From the IMG/VR virus record IMGVR_UViG_3300049140_000186, positions 1 through 64,000 of that record: DNA of 64,000 nucleotides, one strand, 5' to 3'. The notes below the pieces were generated by a model. It was not told the origin of the DNA. It saw only the letters and a list, made by a program, of their open reading frames with translations, and ran no database searches. Source of the stretch: a virus. Its lineage: Duplodnaviria > Caudoviricetes. Shown here one piece after another: positions 32,170 through 48,730 of this stretch (positions within the stretch are counted from its first letter, which is position 1; every line of letters begins with the position of its first letter). Both the position numbers and the translations under genes were made by a program.

Positions 32170-33252
32170 TTAGACACTCTTTTTGCCTCGGTTAGACAAA
32201 ACTCGTTCCCGTTTCGAGCCGGCTTGTATCACATTTGCCATGTCGATCAATACCCCGGACACGTCCGCGCTCGAAGAATAATGCGCCGCCATCTGCGCCG
32301 TCTCTTGGCCGAGATAGTCCTTGATCTGATCGAGCGAATAGCCGAGGCCGCGTAGCTCGGCCGCCACTGAGTGGCGCAGGCCGTGCATGGTCAACCCTTG
32401 GTCGGCCAGCTTGCGAGCGACGCACTTCGCGAAATACTTCCTGATCGATGCGGTGAAGCCCATCTCGGTCCATGGCTTCTTTGCCGAATTCAGGCAGAGC
32501 AACGTGACGTCGACATCGGCGACCGGAACGGCATCGAGGTATTCGTCGAGGATCGCCTTCAACTCCCCCAGCACCGGCAGCTTCATGATCTTGCCGGTCT
32601 TGCCGGTTCGAAAGCTGATGTAACCGTGTCGATACGCCATTCGGGGCAGCTTGAGTATGTCGCCGCGGCGAATGCCAAGGAAGCGTGCCAGGGCCAGCGG
32701 CACCTTCAGATGCAGCGGCGCCGCCGCTAGCACATTGGCCCTCTCTGCGGCCGTCCAGGGCCGGTTTTCTTTGCGCCGGTCGGCGGCGATCTTGGCCTTC
32801 TCCAGCTCGAGGCACGGATTGGAATCGACGAGCTCATATTCCTTGCCGTGCCTGAACGCGGATGACAGCATCGCCATCATGTGATTGGTGAAGGCGCCGC
32901 GCTTTTTCTTCACCGTCTTGTCGCGCAACTTGGCCATGAAGCCTCCGGTCATCAGCACGAGCGGCGTGCCTGCAATCGGCTTCAGATGGTCCATATACTG
33001 GTGATAATCGGCGCGGGTGCGCGGTGCGAGATCGGTGAATTTGGGCGACTTCTTGTAGCTTTCGAGCAACCCGCCCAGCGTGCCGGCCAGCGCCTGCTTC
33101 GGCGCATGCAGCTTGTCGAGCCGGTCGATCTCGGCGGCAAGTGCGGTGCCGGTCAATGTCGCGTCGATCGCGGTACCGGACTTGCGGTGATAGGCGCGCT
33201 GGTTCCCGTAGCGGTCCGTGTAGCGCTTAATTCCCTTCACCGTCACCCTCAT
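32170..33252 (-). CDS. int: Tyrosine integrase
   Basis: GIRRGD (R), HGLRHS (HxxR), LGQ and HY catalytic Tyr; adjacent to tRNA. Confidence 0.93.
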   Translation of the reverse strand: MRVTVKGIKRYTDRYGNQRAYHRKSGTAIDATLTGTALAAEIDRLDKLHAPKQALAGTLGGLLESYKKSPKFTDLAPRTRADYHQYMDHLKPIAGTPLVLMTGGFMAKLRDKTVKKKRGAFTNHMMAMLSSAFRHGKEYELVDSNPCLELEKAKIAADRRKENRPWTAAERANVLAAAPLHLKVPLALARFLGIRRGDILKLPRMAYRHGYISFRTGKTGKIMKLPVLGELKAILDEYLDAVPVADVDVTLLCLNSAKKPWTEMGFTASIRKYFAKCVARKLADQGLTMHGLRHSVAAELRGLGYSLDQIKDYLGQETAQMAAHYSSSADVSGVLIDMANVIQAGSKRERVLSNRGKKSV

Positions 33253-39857: not shown

Positions 39858-39882
39858 GGAACTTCGGCCTGCCGCCGCGCTT
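39858..39882 (+). promoter_or_regulatory. EcfG/RpoE2-type promoter
   Basis: GGAAC-N18-TT, 24 nt upstream of the DUF768-like ATG. Confidence 0.55.
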
Positions 39883-39906
39883 ATAGTCTCCCGAAGGAGA
39901 CGCGGC

Positions 39907-40206
39907 ATGAGCGCTACCAAAGAGTTCTTCGAGACATGGCTACAGGAGAACGTCGGCAACCTTCCCGCCAAAGGTGAGGTGAGCGTTGCCGTCCTGGCTC
40001 AGCAATTTGAGCAAGATGCCGAAGCCGCCGGCTATGGTCACGCGGTACGGGAAGACGAGATCGGCAACATCGAGGGCGCCATAGAGAAGGCGCTGAATCG
40101 AGCTAGGACTGGGGAAGAGGCGCAAGTTGCCGTCCCGGCCGAAGATAGTGATCTGGCGCCCGTCATGGAGGCGCTAGAGGTCGAGGACGCGAAGAGCGGG
40201 CCGTAG
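39907..40206 (+). CDS. DUF768-like small acidic protein
   Basis: MSATKEFFETWLQENV...LAQQFEQDAEAAG. Confidence 0.65.
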   Translation: MSATKEFFETWLQENVGNLPAKGEVSVAVLAQQFEQDAEAAGYGHAVREDEIGNIEGAIEKALNRARTGEEAQVAVPAEDSDLAPVMEALEVEDAKSGP

Positions 40207-40219
40207 TCGTTGCTTGAGC

Positions 40220-40453
40220 CTAGCCATTTTTGCGGGCTCGCCGTGGTTGCCCCTTCGTCAAGAGATCAACAGCCTGGGTCAGTAGGTTTACGGCTTTCTG
40301 CCTATCGTCATCGCTCAGATCGAACGACCCCGCTAGCCTGGCCGAAATCTCCGCATTGATGCTGCGCTCGTTCTCGGCGGCAGCGACCTTGAGCCGCTTC
40401 ATGAGATCCGGCTGCAAACGTACATGAAAACTGGAAGCATCAGGCTGTGGCAT
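40220..40453 (-). CDS. Arc-family ribbon-helix-helix protein
   Basis: FHVRLQPDLMKRLKVAAAENERSINAEI.ARL. Confidence 0.85.
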   Translation of the reverse strand: MPQPDASSFHVRLQPDLMKRLKVAAAENERSINAEISARLAGSFDLSDDDRQKAVNLLTQAVDLLTKGQPRRARKNG

Positions 40454-40619
40454 GCCCGAGTTATGGCCGAAAGGTTCAGCCGTCGAAATGGTCCCACTGA
40501 GTGGTACATATATCCCACAGCTAGTGCCAATATCCCACCTTAACAGGTAACGGCAAATTCGTACTTGATCGCCCGTCCCAAATTGGAACACTGCAATCGG
40601 CAGTGGAAAAAAGAATATC

Positions 40620-41626: not shown

Positions 41627-42472
41627 ATGCGCTGGCTTCCGCAGGTCTATTTCATCCAGGACAATGCCGGCCTCGTTAAGATTGGCTATTCGGCCAATCC
41701 GTTGGCCCGGCTCGGCAATCTGCAAAGCGCACACGCGACAGAACTTCGGATCATCCGCGTGATCGACGGGGGAGAGCGCACCGAAAGGTGGCTGCATCGC
41801 CGGTTCGACGATCAGTGGGTGCGCGGAGAATGGTTCAATTTCCACCCCGACATGATGTCGGTGATCCCTCCGGACGAGTTGCCAGTACGCGGTCAGGTAA
41901 AGCCTAAGCTCCGGCTGACCTTGGGCGAATTCCTGAAAATGCAGGATCAGTTCGGGGCGCTTGCCGGCCATGATCGCCTTTTGGCGCTGACGCTCGTTCA
42001 ATCGTTCTGGGAAGATGACGTGGCGGCGTTCATCGCGTGGGTGCGAGATCGCGTACAGGCTCCACCCGAAGCCGACCCGCTTCAATCCACATGGGATGCC
42101 GCCGGCGAAGCCGAGCGCGAAGCATTCATGGCGCGGAACAATCTCACGAGATCGGACGGCGGCGCATTCGCTGCAGTGACGGTGAAGGACCAACGGGCGA
42201 ACGCCGCTGGCGTTGAACCGTTGCCGTCCGAAGCCAATCCCCCATCGTCCAAGGCTAACTCCTCCCGGCCGAAGGCGATGCCTGCTCGCGAGGCCGAAAC
42301 TCCTCCCTCGGTCTCGCGGGCTATCCCATCCAGCGCGTTGAGCAAGGCTGGTCAGATCCGATTGCTCCGCCCGAACTGCCGTCATGCCGATGACCTCGAG
42401 AAATGCGCGGGCTCCGCCCGGAGGCATTGCCGTAGCTGCGAAGTTGCGAGCGCGGAAGGCGAGGCGGCATGA
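41627..42472 (+). CDS. GIY-YIG (T5orf172-like) domain protein
   Basis: VYFIQ...LVKIGYS.NP..RL..LQ...ERWLHRRF...GEWF. Confidence 0.8.
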   Translation: MRWLPQVYFIQDNAGLVKIGYSANPLARLGNLQSAHATELRIIRVIDGGERTERWLHRRFDDQWVRGEWFNFHPDMMSVIPPDELPVRGQVKPKLRLTLGEFLKMQDQFGALAGHDRLLALTLVQSFWEDDVAAFIAWVRDRVQAPPEADPLQSTWDAAGEAEREAFMARNNLTRSDGGAFAAVTVKDQRANAAGVEPLPSEANPPSSKANSSRPKAMPAREAETPPSVSRAIPSSALSKAGQIRLLRPNCRHADDLEKCAGSARRHCRSCEVASAEGEAA

Positions 42473-42857: not shown

Positions 42858-43062
42858 TGCGAACAGATCGTCGTCATTTGCCGGCCGATCAAACCGATAT
42901 TCAAGTTGACGGACCCCGTTTTGCTTCCCGGCTGACCGGAGCCCGTCAATCACCTGAGACCGCATCGTTCACTTCCTTCATCCCAGCTTTCGACTTTGTG
43001 CCGGGCGTACCCGGTTTAGTCGCTGCCTCTGACACGCACAGGTGTAGCGAAGGAAAAATGTC

Positions 43063-43461
43063 ATGCGTGACAAGTGTTCTGACAGGGACAGCAAAATGTT
43101 TGTAGCGAGTATTGATGACCCGGTTTGGCTTGGCGGCGAAGCCAAGCGAATGGCGACGGAGCTCCTCGAGAAAGAGAAGCGGCCGATCGGCGATACTATC
43201 GAAGCGGCAGCCTATCGGCTCCAGACCCGGCACCGGGTCGCCGTCGCCCCGATCATTCTCCAGTGCTGGAACCGGCCGCCACGCGAGATGAAGGTCTCGC
43301 GCTGGATGACTGTCTTCTACGTCCACTGGAAGGAGTTCGGCACCAAGGCGGACCAAGCCTACGAGGAAAAGAGGAAAACAACGAATGCCCATCCGGCGCT
43401 TGTTCGGCTTGCTGATTTTGTGGCTGGCCGAACTCTTCACCAAGAGGAAACCCAGCAATGA
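43063..43461 (+). CDS. CII-like HTH protein
   Basis: SD AAGGA; GDTIEAAAYRLQ helix; position after cro. Confidence 0.5.
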   Translation: MRDKCSDRDSKMFVASIDDPVWLGGEAKRMATELLEKEKRPIGDTIEAAAYRLQTRHRVAVAPIILQCWNRPPREMKVSRWMTVFYVHWKEFGTKADQAYEEKRKTTNAHPALVRLADFVAGRTLHQEETQQ

Positions 43462-44108
43462 CTGAAACGTCCTACGACCCATACAATCCGCTCGTCCCAG
43501 AAAAGGCGGCGAAGAAGAAATCCAGCAGTTCGAAGGTTGTCCCGATCAAGCCCGGACCAGCGGACGATGCGGTCGCCGCGGTCAATCTCGCGAAATTCCA
43601 ACGGGCAGCCGAAACGCTGGCGTCGGCAAACGGCGTCTATCGAAACGTCGTCAAGCATGTCGAGGCCAAGGGCATCCACATGAAGGCGGCGAAGCGAGCC
43701 GTCGCCATCGCCAAGTCAGACGACCGCGCCGAGATCGTCGAGGAGTTGAAGCGGCTCACCGAATATCTCGCCATTCTCGGCGTGCCGTTTACTCGCGAGC
43801 AGCTTGATCTTTTCCGCGTCGAGGAGCCGCGCACGCCAGGCACCGACAAGGCAACGGCACAGGGCCGCTATGCCGGCATCATGGGCCACGGCAAGGAGGA
43901 CAATCCCTACGCGATCGACAGCGAGCAGGGCCAAGCCTGGATGGCCGCATGGCACGCCGGCGGCGAAGAGCGCGACCTGATCTTGGCGCTCGAACCTGCG
44001 GAAGGCTCGGAACTGATCAAGGTGACGACGATCCTTTCGAAGAAGCCGCCGAATAGCGGCCAGCGTGCGCGTAGGCCGGCCGGGAGCCTGTCCCGGCAAT
44101 CAATTTGA
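43458..44108 (+). CDS. GapR-like/RMF-motif phage protein, probable frameshift near the 3' end
   Basis: VEAKGIHMKAAK; NPY..DSEQGQAWMAAW; alternative frame GDDDPFEEAAE*. Confidence 0.55.
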   Translation: MTETSYDPYNPLVPEKAAKKKSSSSKVVPIKPGPADDAVAAVNLAKFQRAAETLASANGVYRNVVKHVEAKGIHMKAAKRAVAIAKSDDRAEIVEELKRLTEYLAILGVPFTREQLDLFRVEEPRTPGTDKATAQGRYAGIMGHGKEDNPYAIDSEQGQAWMAAWHAGGEERDLILALEPAEGSELIKVTTILSKKPPNSGQRARRPAGSLSRQSI

Positions 44109-44180
44109 TCTTTGGGGGACCGGGCATGAAAATCTCAAGCATCCTACTTTGGCCGTTCGGCGGAGAACCGTCGATCTCGG

Positions 44181-44591
44181 GTGAACTCTCCGGCGCTCAG
44201 CGAACGGTTGGAGGCATTCGCCTTCGCCGCCGAGACCGGCATTCTTGATGAAGCGCGGTCATCCGTCGGTGACGCTCTCGACAACCTTCGCGGCCTACGA
44301 GAGCGCATCCTGGCAACCATCGAACATCACAAGTCCAGAGTGGCGAAGCACGAAGGCGAGCGTTCCGAGTGCGACCGTTCTATCGCGGCATTTGAACTGG
44401 CGGCTGCCAAGCTCAAAGACACCGACAATCCCCGGCTGGAGCTCGCCCCGAAGGCCAAGGCGGAGCCGGTGCGCGAGGCGGCGACCTATTCGGGCCCGGG
44501 AGAGGTGCCGAAGCCCGCGGACGCGCCGCCAGTCGAGGATGATCCTGCCTTCGACGAGATCGAGGACGAAGAATTGGACGAGGTCGCCTGA
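44181..44591 (+). CDS. Hypothetical coiled-coil protein
   Basis: 136 aa with an acidic tail. Confidence 0.55.
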   Translation: MNSPALSERLEAFAFAAETGILDEARSSVGDALDNLRGLRERILATIEHHKSRVAKHEGERSECDRSIAAFELAAAKLKDTDNPRLELAPKAKAEPVREAATYSGPGEVPKPADAPPVEDDPAFDEIEDEELDEVA

Positions 44592-44854
44592 TCATCATGC
44601 GCCTCATCCTCGGCAAGAAGGGCGGCCTGCTGCGCCGCTCGGGCGAAGGCCCGTCTCGCGTCTTCCGCAGAAATGTCTCCCCGGAGCGCACGTTGCAAAG
44701 CGGTGATTGTCATCTCGTGGATATGGCCAGAGCGCTCCGGCCATTTGTCGTTCGCAAGGCATTTCAGCGCCTCCCAAACAGTGTGGACCAGGCGAGTTTT
44801 GCCGGCCTTGCCGAAGCTGATGCGAACCGGACGATCAAAGCGGATCTGTTTCAT
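44486..44854 (-). CDS. DUF982-like protein 1 (domain ends ~44600; tail reads into the neighbouring gene)
   Basis: FDRPVRI...V.TVWEA...L...WP.....A...F..AA..A.LL. Confidence 0.8.
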   Translation of the reverse strand: MKQIRFDRPVRISFGKAGKTRLVHTVWEALKCLANDKWPERSGHIHEMTITALQRALRGDISAEDARRAFARAAQQAALLAEDEAHDDQATSSNSSSSISSKAGSSSTGGASAGFGTSPGPE

Positions 44855-44864
44855 GGCTTAGTCG

Positions 44865-44889
44865 AACGTCGGTCGCGTCCCAATGTTCC
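44865..44889 (-). promoter_or_regulatory. EcfG/RpoE2 promoter
   Basis: GGAAC-N16-CGTT, 10 nt before the ATG. Confidence 0.8.
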
Positions 44890-44911
44890 GCACATGAAAC
44901 CGATCACACCG

Positions 44912-45163
44912 TCAGGCCTCTTCCAGCAGCACGCCGGCCTCGCGGGCGGCCTTGACGAATTCCGCCCAGGCATTGTCGCAGGTACCCAGGCCGTTGGACG
45001 CCTCAATGCAAGCCATACGAGCCCGAAGGTTGACTCGACCCTTGTTCGGCCAACGGGGATCCCGCAGCAATTTCGCGGCCTCCTCCACAGTGGCGACGCT
45101 GATTATCAGTCCGATTTTGCCAAATCGGATAGGCACTGGCGAAGGGAAAAGCTTCATTTTCAT
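44912..45163 (-). CDS. DUF982-like protein 2
   Basis: FPSPVPI...VATVEEAA..L...WP...A..AC...FVKAAREAGVL. Confidence 0.85.
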   Translation of the reverse strand: MKMKLFPSPVPIRFGKIGLIISVATVEEAAKLLRDPRWPNKGRVNLRARMACIEASNGLGTCDNAWAEFVKAAREAGVLLEEA

Positions 45164-45172
45164 GAGCCGTTG

Positions 45173-45197
45173 AACTCCAGACTTTCAAGGCAGTTCC
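45173..45197 (-). promoter_or_regulatory. EcfG/RpoE2 promoter
   Basis: GGAAC-N16-AGTT, 9 nt before the ATG. Confidence 0.7.
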
Positions 45198-45454
45198 CGT
45201 ATATCCATGGCGATCAAGACGCGGGCTTCCTCCGCCGCGTCCCTGAAAGCAAGCCGCGCCTCGTCGGGCGTGGCTTCACCCCGCAAGGCTTCGATCAGCT
45301 TCACTGCGGCGCGCTCGCACGCCGGTCCATGCACCGGCCAATCATCGGACATCAGGATTTCTGCGGCCTCCTGAATGGAGGTGACATTCCGGATGACGCG
45401 TCCATGCAGGACTTTCACAGGCGGCCGGAACCAAGTTCTGCGGGGACGGGGCAT
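45185..45454 (-). CDS. DUF982-like protein 3
   Basis: WFRPPVKV...VTSIQEAAEIL..DWP..G...A...AF..AAEEARVL. Confidence 0.85.
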   Translation of the reverse strand: MPRPRRTWFRPPVKVLHGRVIRNVTSIQEAAEILMSDDWPVHGPACERAAVKLIEALRGEATPDEARLAFRDAAEEARVLIAMDIRELP

Positions 45455-45524
45455 GCATAAGCTCACATTGGACCCATCAACCACATTCGGCTGGTGTCTG
45501 TTTCTGGGCCGCCGAATGACAAGA

Positions 45525-45764
45525 TCAGGTGAATTTCAGGATGCCGGCTTCACGAGCGGCTTCAACGAAAGCGGAATGGGCGTCGAGCAACGGCCGCTGC
45601 CCTTCCAGAATTTTGAGGCATGTTTCGGTGGCGTCCCGGTGGCGCGGACCGCGGCGCGGCCAGCGGACGTCCAGCAAGGCTTGGGCTGCGCTTCTAGCGC
45701 TGGCGACCGAGCGGGCTACTCCGAGTTCGATTTCGACTGCCTCTGCAAATCTCTTGTCGGGCAC
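45525..45764 (-). CDS. DUF982-like protein 4
   Basis: FAEAVEI...VASARSAAQALL..RWP..GPRHRDA..TC...AFVEAAREAGIL; SD AAGGAAG. Confidence 0.85.
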   Translation of the reverse strand: MPDKRFAEAVEIELGVARSVASARSAAQALLDVRWPRRGPRHRDATETCLKILEGQRPLLDAHSAFVEAAREAGILKFT

Positions 45765-45791
45765 TTGCACCTTCCTTTGTTGGGCCAACTG

Positions 45792-45816
45792 AACATCTCG
45801 ACGGACCCAAAGTTCC
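45792..45816 (-). promoter_or_regulatory. EcfG/RpoE2 promoter
   Basis: GGAAC-N16-TGTT upstream of the SD. Confidence 0.7.
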
Positions 45817-45826
45817 GGAGGGGCCT

Positions 45827-46381
45827 GTGATTATTTTGGGCCTCGACATCGCTACGACGACGGGCTTCGCTTGGTATGAGCCCGGCTCATCGCTGTCATC
45901 TATCAAAACCGGCCTGATCAAGGCCGAAGGCGAGAATGCCGAGGAAAAGGCCGCGTCGATCGCGCAGCAGCTCGTGGCGCTGATCAAGCCCATGCGGCCG
46001 GATTTCGTCGCCGTCGAGCAGCCAATGCGCAACGTGGTCTCGTTCAAGAAGACGAAGCAGACGCTAGCCGGGCCCGTCGACGAGCAGACGATCAACCCGA
46101 ACGCGCTGCAGCTTTCCAGCCTGACCGGCGCCGCCATAGCGGTCATCGCTGCCTATCGCATCCCATGGGAGACGATCCCCTCGTCGACCTGGAGGAAGCA
46201 TTTCCTCGGCATGGGCCGCTCTCCCGGCTTTGACCGCGCCATGTGGAAGCGCGCCGCGGTCGAGCGCTGCCGGGTTTTCAAGATCGCGGTGAAGAACGCC
46301 GATGCTGCCGAATCCGTGGGGATCGCGATGGCCGGCGAGGCGACGCAGACATTCAAGATGATCGGGGCGAGGGCTGCGTGA
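45827..46381 (+). CDS. RuvC-like Holliday junction resolvase
   Basis: ILGLDIATTTGFA, VAVEQP, NADAAESVGI. Confidence 0.8.
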   Translation: MIILGLDIATTTGFAWYEPGSSLSSIKTGLIKAEGENAEEKAASIAQQLVALIKPMRPDFVAVEQPMRNVVSFKKTKQTLAGPVDEQTINPNALQLSSLTGAAIAVIAAYRIPWETIPSSTWRKHFLGMGRSPGFDRAMWKRAAVERCRVFKIAVKNADAAESVGIAMAGEATQTFKMIGARAA

Positions 46382-46386
46382 CCTTC

Positions 46387-47052
46387 TCAATCATCATCAA
46401 TAACACTGGTGATCGCCCTTGCGAGACGCTTTTCGTGCTCTTGGCCGAGGACCCGGTACTTGATTTCGAACTCGAACCTCGAGGCGATGGTCACCGGGTC
46501 TGTCACGGGTTCTCCGTTACGCGACAGGTGGATCTTCAGCGATCGCTCGGGTGGTGGCTCGTTATTTCGGTCGGTCCAGCCTTGGATAAGGAAGCTCCCG
46601 CTCTCACCCGCTCTAATTTGAGCGCGCCTGGAGAGGCGGCTCGCATCTTTTTTGTCGCTCAAATCCTCAACGGTAACATCGTTGCCGTTTCGGATTGTGA
46701 CGTCGCCCACCATCACCCGCCGTCGGTTCCAGTTCCTGACGGTCAGATAGATCTCGCGCGCGCGCCGGTTGCGGTAAATAAGGAAATCAGGCTCGGGGTC
46801 CCCGACAATAAAAGCCGTCTGGCGACGGGCTTCGACCACCTGGTGCCAAAGGATCGGGAGTGTGACGACGGCAGCGACGAACGCCGCCCAGCCACTGAGA
46901 GCGCTCACCCATTCTCGGACGCAGTGCTCCTCACCGACAACGCACCACGAGAACTCAGCCAGCACGGACGCCGCGATGAAGTAGGCGGCAAACCCGCCGA
47001 CAAGCGGGCCAACAATCACGTTGAACCAAAATATGAATTTCTGCTCCCCCAT
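46387..47052 (-). CDS. Membrane-anchored hypothetical protein (moron)
   Basis: Two N-terminal TM segments; antisense to the operon. Confidence 0.65.
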   Translation of the reverse strand: MGEQKFIFWFNVIVGPLVGGFAAYFIAASVLAEFSWCVVGEEHCVREWVSALSGWAAFVAAVVTLPILWHQVVEARRQTAFIVGDPEPDFLIYRNRRAREIYLTVRNWNRRRVMVGDVTIRNGNDVTVEDLSDKKDASRLSRRAQIRAGESGSFLIQGWTDRNNEPPPERSLKIHLSRNGEPVTDPVTIASRFEFEIKYRVLGQEHEKRLARAITSVIDDD

Positions 47053-47096
47053 GTCCGTTTGAATAGCATGGGTTCGGATCAGTTGGCGAGGGTGGC

Positions 47097-47294
47097 ATGA
47101 AGCACGCCCGCGACATGAACCCACGCGAGATCGAGCGCATGTGCGCCCGCGTCTATCTCAATGAGGCGCGTCGGCGGCGGGGGCAGTCTTTTGCCGCCAC
47201 ATTGCTCCAATGGGCGAAGAACGCCCGCAACCGCGCGAACGCGTGGCGGCCCGCTCCACCTGCACAGGGCGATCTGTTCGGAGGTCGGCAATGA
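47097..47294 (+). CDS. Hypothetical protein
   Basis: ARVYLNEARRRR...LLQWA.NA...QGDLF. Confidence 0.6.
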   Translation: MKHARDMNPREIERMCARVYLNEARRRRGQSFAATLLQWAKNARNRANAWRPAPPAQGDLFGGRQ

Positions 47295-48730
47295 ACGCTC
47301 ATCCCCGCGAGTTCCGCGCCCCGCTCCCCGATGCCATTGAGGCCGAACAGGCCCTACTAGGCGCGGTTTTCCTCGACAACTCCAATTACTGGAAGGTCGC
47401 GGGCTTCCTGCAGCCCAAGCATTTCTCCGAGCCGGCGAACGCCTTGGTCTATGAGGTGGTCGGCAAGATGATCGCCGAGGGCCGGCCGGCCAATCCGCTG
47501 ACGATCAAGCCGTACATTCCAGCCGCTGACATGATCGGCGAGATCAGTTTCTTCCAGTATGTCATCGAGCTTGGCCGCCAGGCTGTCGGCGGGGCCGCGG
47601 TGTACGAGAACGGCCGCGCGGTGATGGAGATATGGGCCCGGCGGCAGTTGATCGCGGCGGCGCAAGACCTTGAGGCGCTGGCGCGCAACATGCCGATCGA
47701 CATGACGCCGGAGAAGATCATCTGCCACACGGCCGGCGACCTCACCAGGATCGCGCAGGAAGGCAACGAACGGGCCGCATCGCAAAAATATGGCGTGGTG
47801 CTGCCGAAGGCCGTCGACAAGGCCGCGAAGGATAGCGGGGACACTGCGTCCCGCATTCCATGGTTCCTGCCGGAGATCACAGCAGCGCTGGGCGATGTCC
47901 GTCGCGGCAACCTCGTCGGGCTCATGTCCGATTCCGGCGGCGGCAAGACCTCGTTCTCTCTCCAGCAGTGCCGGTTTGCGGCATCGCGTGGGTTCAAGAC
48001 GGCGTTCTTCTCCATCGAAATCACGGACGAGGAAGCTGCGCTCCAGGCCGCTGCACAGCAGACGCATATCCCGCTAGGTCGGATCGACGCCTTCACGCTC
48101 CAGACCAAGGAGAAGGAAGCCCTGGAGGGCGAGATGACCATTTCCGCCGATCTGCCGTTCTACATCGTCGGGTTTGGCGAATGCTCGCTTTCGGACGTCC
48201 GGATCAAGGCGGAAGCCATGGTCAAGAGCCAGGGGCTGGATTTGATAATGATCGACCACGCCAAGATGATCGCCCTGCCCAATCCGAAGGACATCTTCGC
48301 CGACCGGGTGAACGCGCTCTACCGAGGGCTTAAGGCGCTGGCAAAGACGCTGAACGTCGCCATCGTCATCCTGATCCAGCGAAACGATGATTGGAAGAAG
48401 CGCTGGCAGTCAGGCGGCATCATCCGCCCGATGATGGGCGACGCCTATGGCGGCTCGGGTGTGAAACAGAACCTCGACGTGTGGTTCAGCCTGTACCGTC
48501 CAGAGCCGCTCTACAAGGAACTGATCCCGCAAACGCAGCGGCAGGAAAAGCGCGAAGAGCTGATCCAGAAATACGAACGCTCCCGCGGCAAGGCTCAAAT
48601 CATCAACCACAAACGGCGGCGCGGCGAGCCGGGCGTTTCGCCCGAAATCCGCTTCGAGGCCGAATACACCATGTTCGCATCGCTGGCCGAAGATTTGCCG
48701 CCGGCGTTCGAAGGATTCGAGGGCTTCTGA
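47291..48730 (+). CDS. dnaB: DnaB-like replicative helicase
   Basis: N-terminal AEQALLGAVFLDN; Walker A SGGGKTS; FSIE; IMIDH. Confidence 0.85.
   Translation: MNAHPREFRAPLPDAIEAEQALLGAVFLDNSNYWKVAGFLQPKHFSEPANALVYEVVGKMIAEGRPANPLTIKPYIPAADMIGEISFFQYVIELGRQAVGGAAVYENGRAVMEIWARRQLIAAAQDLEALARNMPIDMTPEKIICHTAGDLTRIAQEGNERAASQKYGVVLPKAVDKAAKDSGDTASRIPWFLPEITAALGDVRRGNLVGLMSDSGGGKTSFSLQQCRFAASRGFKTAFFSIEITDEEAALQAAAQQTHIPLGRIDAFTLQTKEKEALEGEMTISADLPFYIVGFGECSLSDVRIKAEAMVKSQGLDLIMIDHAKMIALPNPKDIFADRVNALYRGLKALAKTLNVAIVILIQRNDDWKKRWQSGGIIRPMMGDAYGGSGVKQNLDVWFSLYRPEPLYKELIPQTQRQEKREELIQKYERSRGKAQIINHKRRRGEPGVSPEIRFEAEYTMFASLAEDLPPAFEGFEGF

Follow-up and report, generated by a model that had tools for sequence, protein, structure and literature searches.

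A prophage cassette of four DUF982 genes with EcfG-type promoter boxes, a probable general-stress-wired moron

Prophages carry morons with promoters that are read by the host, such as bor and lom of phage lambda and the Escherichia coli prophage genes that are tied to RpoS, while lambda paQ represents a CII-activated antisense promoter located inside gene Q. In the current work, a 64,000-nucleotide stretch of DNA (positions 1 to 64,000 of IMG/VR record IMGVR_UViG_3300049140_000186, a provirus of 73.8 kb; the entire stretch is referred to as the window) was analyzed with respect to four tandem genes of the DUF982 family (Pfam PF06169), which occupy the minus strand around positions 44,592 to 45,826 and three of which are directly preceded by a promoter-like box of the EcfG type. 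We consider it likely that these genes constitute a moron cassette wired to the general stress response in a temperate rhizobial prophage.

DUF982 comprises thousands of members in rhizobia and their relatives, and has a solved structure and almost no literature: the retrieved mentions of DUF982 or PF06169 are irrelevant to its function, Atu1219, the member of solved structure, is mentioned nowhere in the literature searched, and the papers on Sinorhizobium meliloti rpoE2 neither name nor discuss the family. Our literature search also found no paper on EcfG-regulated prophage genes. The promoter recognized by EcfG/RpoE2, a sigma factor of extracytoplasmic function (ECF) group ECF15, is defined by a -35 element GGAAC, a spacer of 16-17 nt and a -10 element (C)GTT, with GGAAC-N18-19-TT as its published minimal form. 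The RpoE2 box is located 5-11 nt upstream of transcript 5' ends (Sallet et al., PMC3738161), and at the mapped promoter of rpoE5 the seventh base behind the TT is the first to be transcribed (PMC6180224).

Promoter boxes and genes of the cassette

The boxes upstream of paralogs 1, 2 and 4 (numbered by position, with all coordinates given in Table 1) conform to this promoter definition, whereas the sequence upstream of paralog 3 does not. GGAAC-N16/17-GTT is present six times on the two strands of the window, where approximately three occurrences are expected, and three of these six are situated on the coding strand 9, 10 and 27 nt before a DUF982 start codon, a placement of three boxes for which the probability of chance occurrence is estimated to be roughly 1e-8. 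The box of paralog 1 has a counterpart in a further provirus (L005), in which GGAAC, CGTT, the 16-nt spacing and the distance of 10 nt to the ATG are all kept while the sequence of the spacer differs at most positions. Similarly, the box and leader of paralog 4 are kept in Mesorhizobium sp. 1B3.

The four motifs listed by the initial annotation of this DNA were all recovered, yet its proposal that each gene is equipped with an EcfG promoter of its own stands for paralogs 1, 2 and 4, which have GGAAC-N16-NGTT directly upstream, and fails for paralog 3. The GAAAC variant in front of the latter gene occurs four times in sense and four times in antisense orientation upstream of 95 distinct DUF982 genes (see below for the sampling); because it is equally common on both strands across the family this fourth promoter is unsupported, and the box at 45479-45504 probably does not act as an EcfG promoter in its own right. 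As paralogs 4 and 3 are not separated by a terminator-like site, read-through from the promoter of the former probably accounts for transcription of the latter. Paralogs 1 and 2, in turn, are predicted to possess leaders of roughly 0 to 5 nt, because their ATG codons are positioned 10 and 9 nt after the TT of the box, within reach of the published distance to the transcription start site (TSS), and because they lack a Shine-Dalgarno sequence. This prediction agrees with the earlier suggestion that two of the transcripts are almost leaderless.

The assignment of the four minus-strand open reading frames (ORFs) to DUF982, made in the initial annotation from the letters of the sequence, was borne out by a Pfam scan in which all four exceeded the PF06169 gathering cut-off of 22.2 bits, with E values ranging from 7.5e-18 to 1.7e-10 and with coverage of the 73-position profile from position 1-3 or 8 through position 72-73. 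The same ORFs were also recovered by a six-frame search, and the long plus-strand ORFs that overlap them are without such support. The paralogs are indeed highly diverged, their pairwise identity being 32-38%. Translation of paralog 4 most likely starts at GTG 45764, because this codon is located behind a AAGGAAGG Shine-Dalgarno sequence and because the orthologue in Mesorhizobium sp. 1B3 has an ATG at that position, and paralog 3 probably starts at ATG 45454, which was chosen by alignment with the other paralogs.

The cassette had been described as filling the gap between two early genes exactly, which proved incorrect: the frame of paralog 1 has no stop at 44592 but continues as far as 44486 and covers 106 nt of the convergent gene 44181-44591, so that its Ser/Gly-rich tail is antisense to the 3' end of that gene. 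The orthologue of paralog 1 in provirus L005 encodes 121 aa and has kept both this tail and the overlap with the convergent gene. As a separate observation, the last approximately 42 residues encoded by the 136-aa early gene (44465-44591; acidic, ending in ELDEVA) match the C-terminus of a 613-aa ParB-like protein (L005:4267-4390, minus strand); in both phages this tail is antisense to the 3' extension of paralog 1, and a 6-nt indel leaves both frames open.

Identity amounts to 73% between paralog 1 and a gene in provirus L005 and to 79% between paralog 4 and a gene of Mesorhizobium sp. 1B3, while paralogs 2 and 3 display 40-45% identity to genes of various Phyllobacteriaceae. Each paralog is closer to DUF982 genes elsewhere than to its neighbours in the array, which is therefore old or assembled from several sources, and not the result of recent local duplication. 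The DNA in common with the Mesorhizobium sp. 1B3 chromosome corresponds to 45537-45821, which is exactly the paralog 4 gene, its promoter and five bases, and the DNA in common with provirus L005 covers only about 44465-44899, i.e. the paralog 1 unit. This sharing of DNA limited to single units supports the idea, already put forward in the initial annotation, that the cassette is made up of separate promoter-plus-gene units. The only identical copy of paralog 2 so far known is on a metagenome contig, and the base composition of the cassette is not distinct from that of its flanks. No cassette relative was found by a DNA search of a phage collection, a first scan of the genome collection with paralog 1 returned nothing, and a tblastn search of plasmids gave one weak match; a search of positions 43000-47500 against Rfam was without a match.

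DUF982 genes and their boxes in other genomes

Sampling of DUF982 loci covered viral contigs as well as genomes of Phyllobacterium, Mesorhizobium, Pseudaminobacter, Rhizobium and others, and boxes were counted within 200 nt upstream of each gene with the antisense strand serving as control. The box GGAAC-N17/18-GTT precedes 22 of the 95 distinct DUF982 genes in sense orientation as opposed to two of 95 in antisense orientation (Fisher p 1e-5), and the corresponding numbers for the minimal box GGAAC-N18-19-TT are 43/95 and 3/95, all of these counts being somewhat inflated by orthologous loci (e.g. about nine Phyllobacterium orthologues) in numerator and denominator alike. The survey of prophages for boxed DUF982 arrays that had been proposed for this locus was included here: in viral contigs other than that of the window, the minimal box is located before 16 of 33 DUF982 genes on the sense strand and before one of 33 on the antisense strand. 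Two designs recur among the boxed genes. In one of these the ATG follows the -10 element at a distance of 7-10 nt (seven cases, found in the window and in five other sampled loci), which is in keeping with both the 5-11 nt published for the TSS and the rpoE5 promoter as mapped, and in the other a start codon led by a Shine-Dalgarno sequence is located 21-45 nt downstream of the box. The putative promoter link, as judged from sequence, is a property of the DUF982 family and not of one prophage.

Expression data are available for S. meliloti 1021, whose megaplasmid pSymB has eight DUF982 matches. At least two of these genes respond to rpoE2 overexpression: SMb21480 (1403374-1403634) with a signal log ratio of 3.28 and SMb21470 (1397735-1398016) with a signal log ratio of 1.42 (Schlueter et al. 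2013, PMC3616915, Table S18). The family-wide enrichment of the box and these two rpoE2-induced genes speak for the contention of the initial annotation that the cassette plugs into the host general stress response.

Further rhizobial proviruses carry DUF982 genes, either alone or in arrays of at most three members. One of these proviruses (G001) carries six such genes in the form of two trios that flank a ParB-like gene and run against its direction, while others contain four (G003), three (G004) or two (G002). At 16 viral loci, the neighbours of the DUF982 genes are for the most part ORFs of the opposite strand, with matches to primosomal proteins, DNA methyltransferases, primase/helicases, DnaB, integrases, repressors and HNH endonucleases. 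Counter-oriented DUF982 units in early/replication modules are a recurring feature of rhizobial temperate phages. The family is not confined to phages: a large number of its members are lone genes on chromosomes, where their metabolic neighbourhoods are conserved, and a chromosomal island of Mesorhizobium sp. 1B3 (L085:6400-13500, G005:C5) harbours five tandem DUF982 genes, of which only the first has GGAAC-N16/17-NGTT within 200 nt upstream. Among the neighbours of the latter array are a RES toxin and its Xre/DUF2384-like antitoxin, a PIN (VapC-like) toxin-antitoxin pair, and genes encoding a MORN-repeat protein and a lipocalin. The distribution of the family is patchy, with members in eight of 151 sampled genomes of the order, six of these eight carrying 11-16 copies; Phyllobacterium endophyticum has 23 copies.

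An AlphaFold2 model of paralog 2 (predicted local distance difference test score 87.5) consists of a beta-hairpin followed by three helices, and superimposes on PDB entry 2KPQ, the structural-genomics nuclear magnetic resonance structure of Atu1219 from Agrobacterium tumefaciens, with Z 10.8, a root-mean-square deviation of 2.3 Å over 82 aligned residues and a TM score of 0.76; 2KPQ itself matches the PF06169 profile with an E value of 3.5e-19. In a Foldseek search of the PDB combined with a VIA-align sweep only 2KPQ was convincing, the other rows being generic helical bundles with Z values of at most 5.5, and a search of the ESM Atlas returned DUF982 clusters only. The conserved positions of the family are mostly hydrophobic or alanine and include a Trp-Pro pair. 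The products are cytoplasmic proteins of approximately 80 aa which, as no candidate catalytic residue is conserved in the DUF982 alignment, most likely act by binding something.

At 50% identity the family forms 2,884 clusters, almost all of them single domains of 80-140 aa. The sole fusions found are DUF982-DUF982 tandems of 127-226 aa in several clusters (P0003-P0007, P0001), which are probably fused array neighbours. The model of one two-domain fusion contains two good domains, a disordered linker and no confident packing; given this linker and a predicted TM score (pTM) of 0.47, it does not speak for a fixed dimer. When 150 ORFs beside genomic DUF982 genes were scanned with Pfam, no recurrent neighbour emerged, the families found being derived from one orthologous Phyllobacterium locus only, and the four DUF982 proteins of the window had no match in PHROGs or PADLOC.

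Position of the cassette in the prophage

The window contains two phage-like elements, namely one represented by large, structural-looking ORFs on the plus strand (4.7-25 kb), and a second prophage which extends from the integrase gene and has its own terminase and portal genes at 51.7-54.5 kb. The DUF982 cassette is located inside the rightward early operon of the second prophage, between the 136-aa early gene and the RuvC-like gene and in opposite orientation to them (Table 1). With regard to the features by which morons are recognized, the cassette is positioned between conserved phage genes and outside the backbone of related phages, L005 having only the paralog 1 unit, and it has promoter-like boxes for three units and no terminator-like site in a simple scan.

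Table 1 Features of the prophage in and around the DUF982 cassette
Feature	Position	Strand	Description
Integrase	32170-33252	-	
Leftward operon			NinB and ERF
Arc-type gene	40220-40591	-	
Rightward early operon	from about 41.6 kb	+	MUG113/T5orf172, several small genes, RMF-domain protein, 136-aa gene
MUG113/T5orf172 (GIY-YIG-like) protein	41627-42472	+	Opens the rightward operon
RMF-domain protein	43458-44108	+	216 aa; PF04957 at residues 130-171, E 1.5e-7, above cut-off; phrog_26995
Flanking early gene	44181-44591	+	136 aa; no family match
DUF982 paralog 1	44486-44854	-	122 aa; PF06169 E 7.5e-18, 64.7 bits; domain at residues 8-80
EcfG-type box GGAAC-N16-CGTT	44865-44889	-	10 nt before paralog 1 ATG; no Shine-Dalgarno sequence
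DUF982 paralog 2	44912-45163	-	83 aa; PF06169 E 1.7e-10, 41.1 bits
EcfG-type box GGAAC-N16-AGTT	45173-45197	-	9 nt before paralog 2 ATG; -35 inside the last codons of paralog 3; no Shine-Dalgarno sequence
DUF982 paralog 3	45185-45454	-	89 aa from ATG 45454 (probable start); PF06169 E 1.7e-13, 50.8 bits; frame open to GTG 45484
Degenerate GAAAC-N17-GGTT	45479-45504	-	Before paralog 3
DUF982 paralog 4	45525-45764	-	79 aa from GTG 45764 (most likely start); PF06169 E 1.6e-11, 44.4 bits; frame open to TTG 45788
EcfG-type box GGAAC-N16-TGTT	45792-45816	-	27 nt before paralog 4 GTG; -35 abuts the Shine-Dalgarno sequence of the divergent RuvC-like gene
RuvC-like Holliday-junction resolvase	45827-46381	+	phrog_159 E 1.2e-17; weak Pfam RuvC match
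Counter-oriented gene	46387-47124	-	245 aa; hydrophobic N-terminal segment; no Pfam, PHROG or PADLOC match
DnaB	47210-48730		
Large terminase	51681		
Portal	53096		

Some further observations concern the neighbouring genes. The MUG113/T5orf172 gene and the small gene behind it may be translationally coupled, as the stop of the former overlaps the start of the latter, and the presence of an RMF domain in the product of a phage early gene (43458-44108) is unusual. Boxes of the minimal type are also found near two other genes of this region: GGAAC-N19-TT with a CATT -10 element is located at 47290-47315 on the minus strand, inside dnaB and about 166 nt upstream of the counter-oriented gene 46387-47124, and GGAAC-N18-TT is located in 39858-40206 on the plus strand, 24 nt before ATG 39907 of a gene for a 99-aa acidic protein with no Pfam match at E values of 0.01 or below.

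Alternative explanations and comparison with described systems

If the four genes represent a general-stress-wired moron cassette, as seems likely, then long-diverged DUF982 genes would have been inserted against the rightward early/replication operon of a temperate phage. In the lysogen, in which the lytic genes would be repressed, stress or stationary phase would free EcfG, an ECF15 sigma factor under the control of PhyR and NepR, and host RNA polymerase would start at the boxes. The EcfG holoenzyme would transcribe three units to yield four small binding proteins: paralogs 1 and 2 would be translated from near-leaderless mRNAs, and paralog 4 from an mRNA led by a Shine-Dalgarno sequence, which would probably also carry paralog 3.

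A number of points weigh against this account. The minimal box GGAAC-N18-19-TT is not enriched across the window (13 found, 12 expected), and the promoter argument therefore rests on position and conservation; moreover, the full CGTT -10 element is present in the box of paralog 1 only. A simple scan of the minus strand detected no intrinsic-terminator-like site within or after the cassette. In S. meliloti, the DUF982 gene SMb20551 has an RpoD-type promoter with a mapped TSS, and some box-bearing DUF982 copies of pSymB, as well as the copies near 572-577 kb, are not among the rpoE2-table entries covered. Finally, a PhyR-NepR-EcfG system in the host of the prophage is assumed from the taxa that carry DUF982, and EcfG dependence in this host, the TSSs and any benefit to the lysogen are likewise inferred.

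The boxes might be read by another ECF sigma factor or be non-functional in the host, with the cassette being expressed constitutively or from a phage promoter. A -35 AAC combined with a -10 GT(T) is common to several ECF groups, and the consensus of S. meliloti RpoE6 (ECF26) resembles that of ECF15 (PMC6180224); furthermore, CGTT is replaced by AGTT and TGTT in two of the three boxes. Nonetheless, GGAAC with a spacing of 16-17 nt and GTT or TT is the published RpoE2/EcfG definition (PMC3738161), the box is more than ten-fold enriched upstream of DUF982 genes, two family members are rpoE2-dependent by experiment (PMC3616915), and the core elements of the box are kept while the spacer drifts, so that this explanation is regarded as highly unlikely. 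A different possibility is that it is the act of transcription that matters, in which case stress promoters opposing the early operon would, through collision or antisense RNA, lower expression of the RuvC-like and dnaB genes and would favour the keeping or establishment of lysogeny in stressed cells, in the manner of lambda paQ. The layout is compatible with such interference, as three promoters face the rightward operon with no terminator-like site inside or behind the cassette, at least 106 nt of the convergent early gene are covered by the paralog 1 frame and hence by the transcript of paralog 1, an overlap that is kept in L005, and counter-orientation in early/replication modules applies to most of the 16 viral loci. 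On the other hand, promoter-gene units also occur in non-phage loci (pSymB, and the Mesorhizobium sp. 1B3 array of five genes that adjoins toxin-antitoxin modules), the coding sequences are intact and Pfam-scoring, which points to proteins under selection, and counter-orientation is expected of any lysogen-expressed moron, as it avoids driving lytic genes. We judge this explanation unlikely, and given the conservation of the proteins and the presence of the units in loci outside phages, a brake on induction would at best be a side effect.

The array could also represent a set of diversified binders employed in conflicts between phage and host or between phages, for instance in superinfection exclusion, in anti-defence or as decoys, with neighbours that may hetero-oligomerise and with a diversity of paralogs that would stem from an arms race. 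The strongly diverged paralogs that form tandem arrays in prophages and in an island rich in toxin-antitoxin genes, the natural DUF982-DUF982 fusions in several clusters, and the existence of 2,884 clusters of nearly always stand-alone small proteins would all suit such a role, but PADLOC and PHROGs gave no match, no neighbour family recurs among the 150 flanking ORFs, the two-domain model is without confident packing (pTM 0.47), and numerous family members stand alone on chromosomes within conserved metabolic neighbourhoods. This explanation is likewise regarded as highly unlikely, and the evidence taken together favours a moron cassette that is wired to the general stress response. A broader version, according to which promoter-plus-DUF982 units are mobile general-stress effectors spread by phages, rhizobial temperate phages pile up diverged copies in opposition to their replication operons and EcfG is read twice, once through small binding proteins that alter the stress physiology of the lysogen and once through antisense transcription that restrains lytic replication, appears distinctly unlikely.

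The significance of these results extends beyond the present locus, as they tie DUF982 to the alphaproteobacterial general stress response, with nearly half of the sampled genes being boxed and two being induced in array experiments, and this link provides a concrete condition and a regulator for functional tests of the family. The cassette would also be an example of prophage cargo that is wired to EcfG rather than to RpoS. The initial annotation had singled out the locus as its best candidate for an undescribed system, an appraisal that is not upheld because boxed DUF982 genes are frequently found on rhizobial chromosomes, on pSymB and in other prophages, and no partner, fusion or defence link was found that would set it apart, the only fusions being of DUF982 to itself.

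Among described genes, S. meliloti SMb21480 and SMb21470 come closest, as they share with the prophage array the DUF982 family, the tandem habit and GGAAC-type boxes, and as their induction by the general-stress sigma factor has been measured (PMC3616915); unlike the prophage array they are megaplasmid genes and not phage-borne, and SMb21480 is the last gene of an operon instead of forming a unit of its own. Atu1219 has the family and the fold of the cassette proteins but is a single chromosomal gene. In common with morons of the lambda bor/lom type, the cassette consists of extra genes between phage genes with their own promoters and with predicted expression in the lysogen apart from the lytic programme, and it differs from these in its EcfG-type box, in the presence of four units in a row of which two are predicted to be leaderless, and in that no terminators were found. 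The geometry of lambda paQ is comparable insofar as a promoter opposes a lytic operon and is fired by a pro-lysogeny signal, yet the paQ RNA is a non-coding antisense transcript, whereas the cassette transcripts would encode conserved proteins and the units also occur outside phages. The cassette thereby extends known kinds of elements and does not constitute a new system or mechanism; what appears to be new relative to the literature searched, judged at the level of sequence, is the family-wide link between DUF982 and the EcfG box, the recurrent leaderless design and the repeated carriage of such units by rhizobial prophages.

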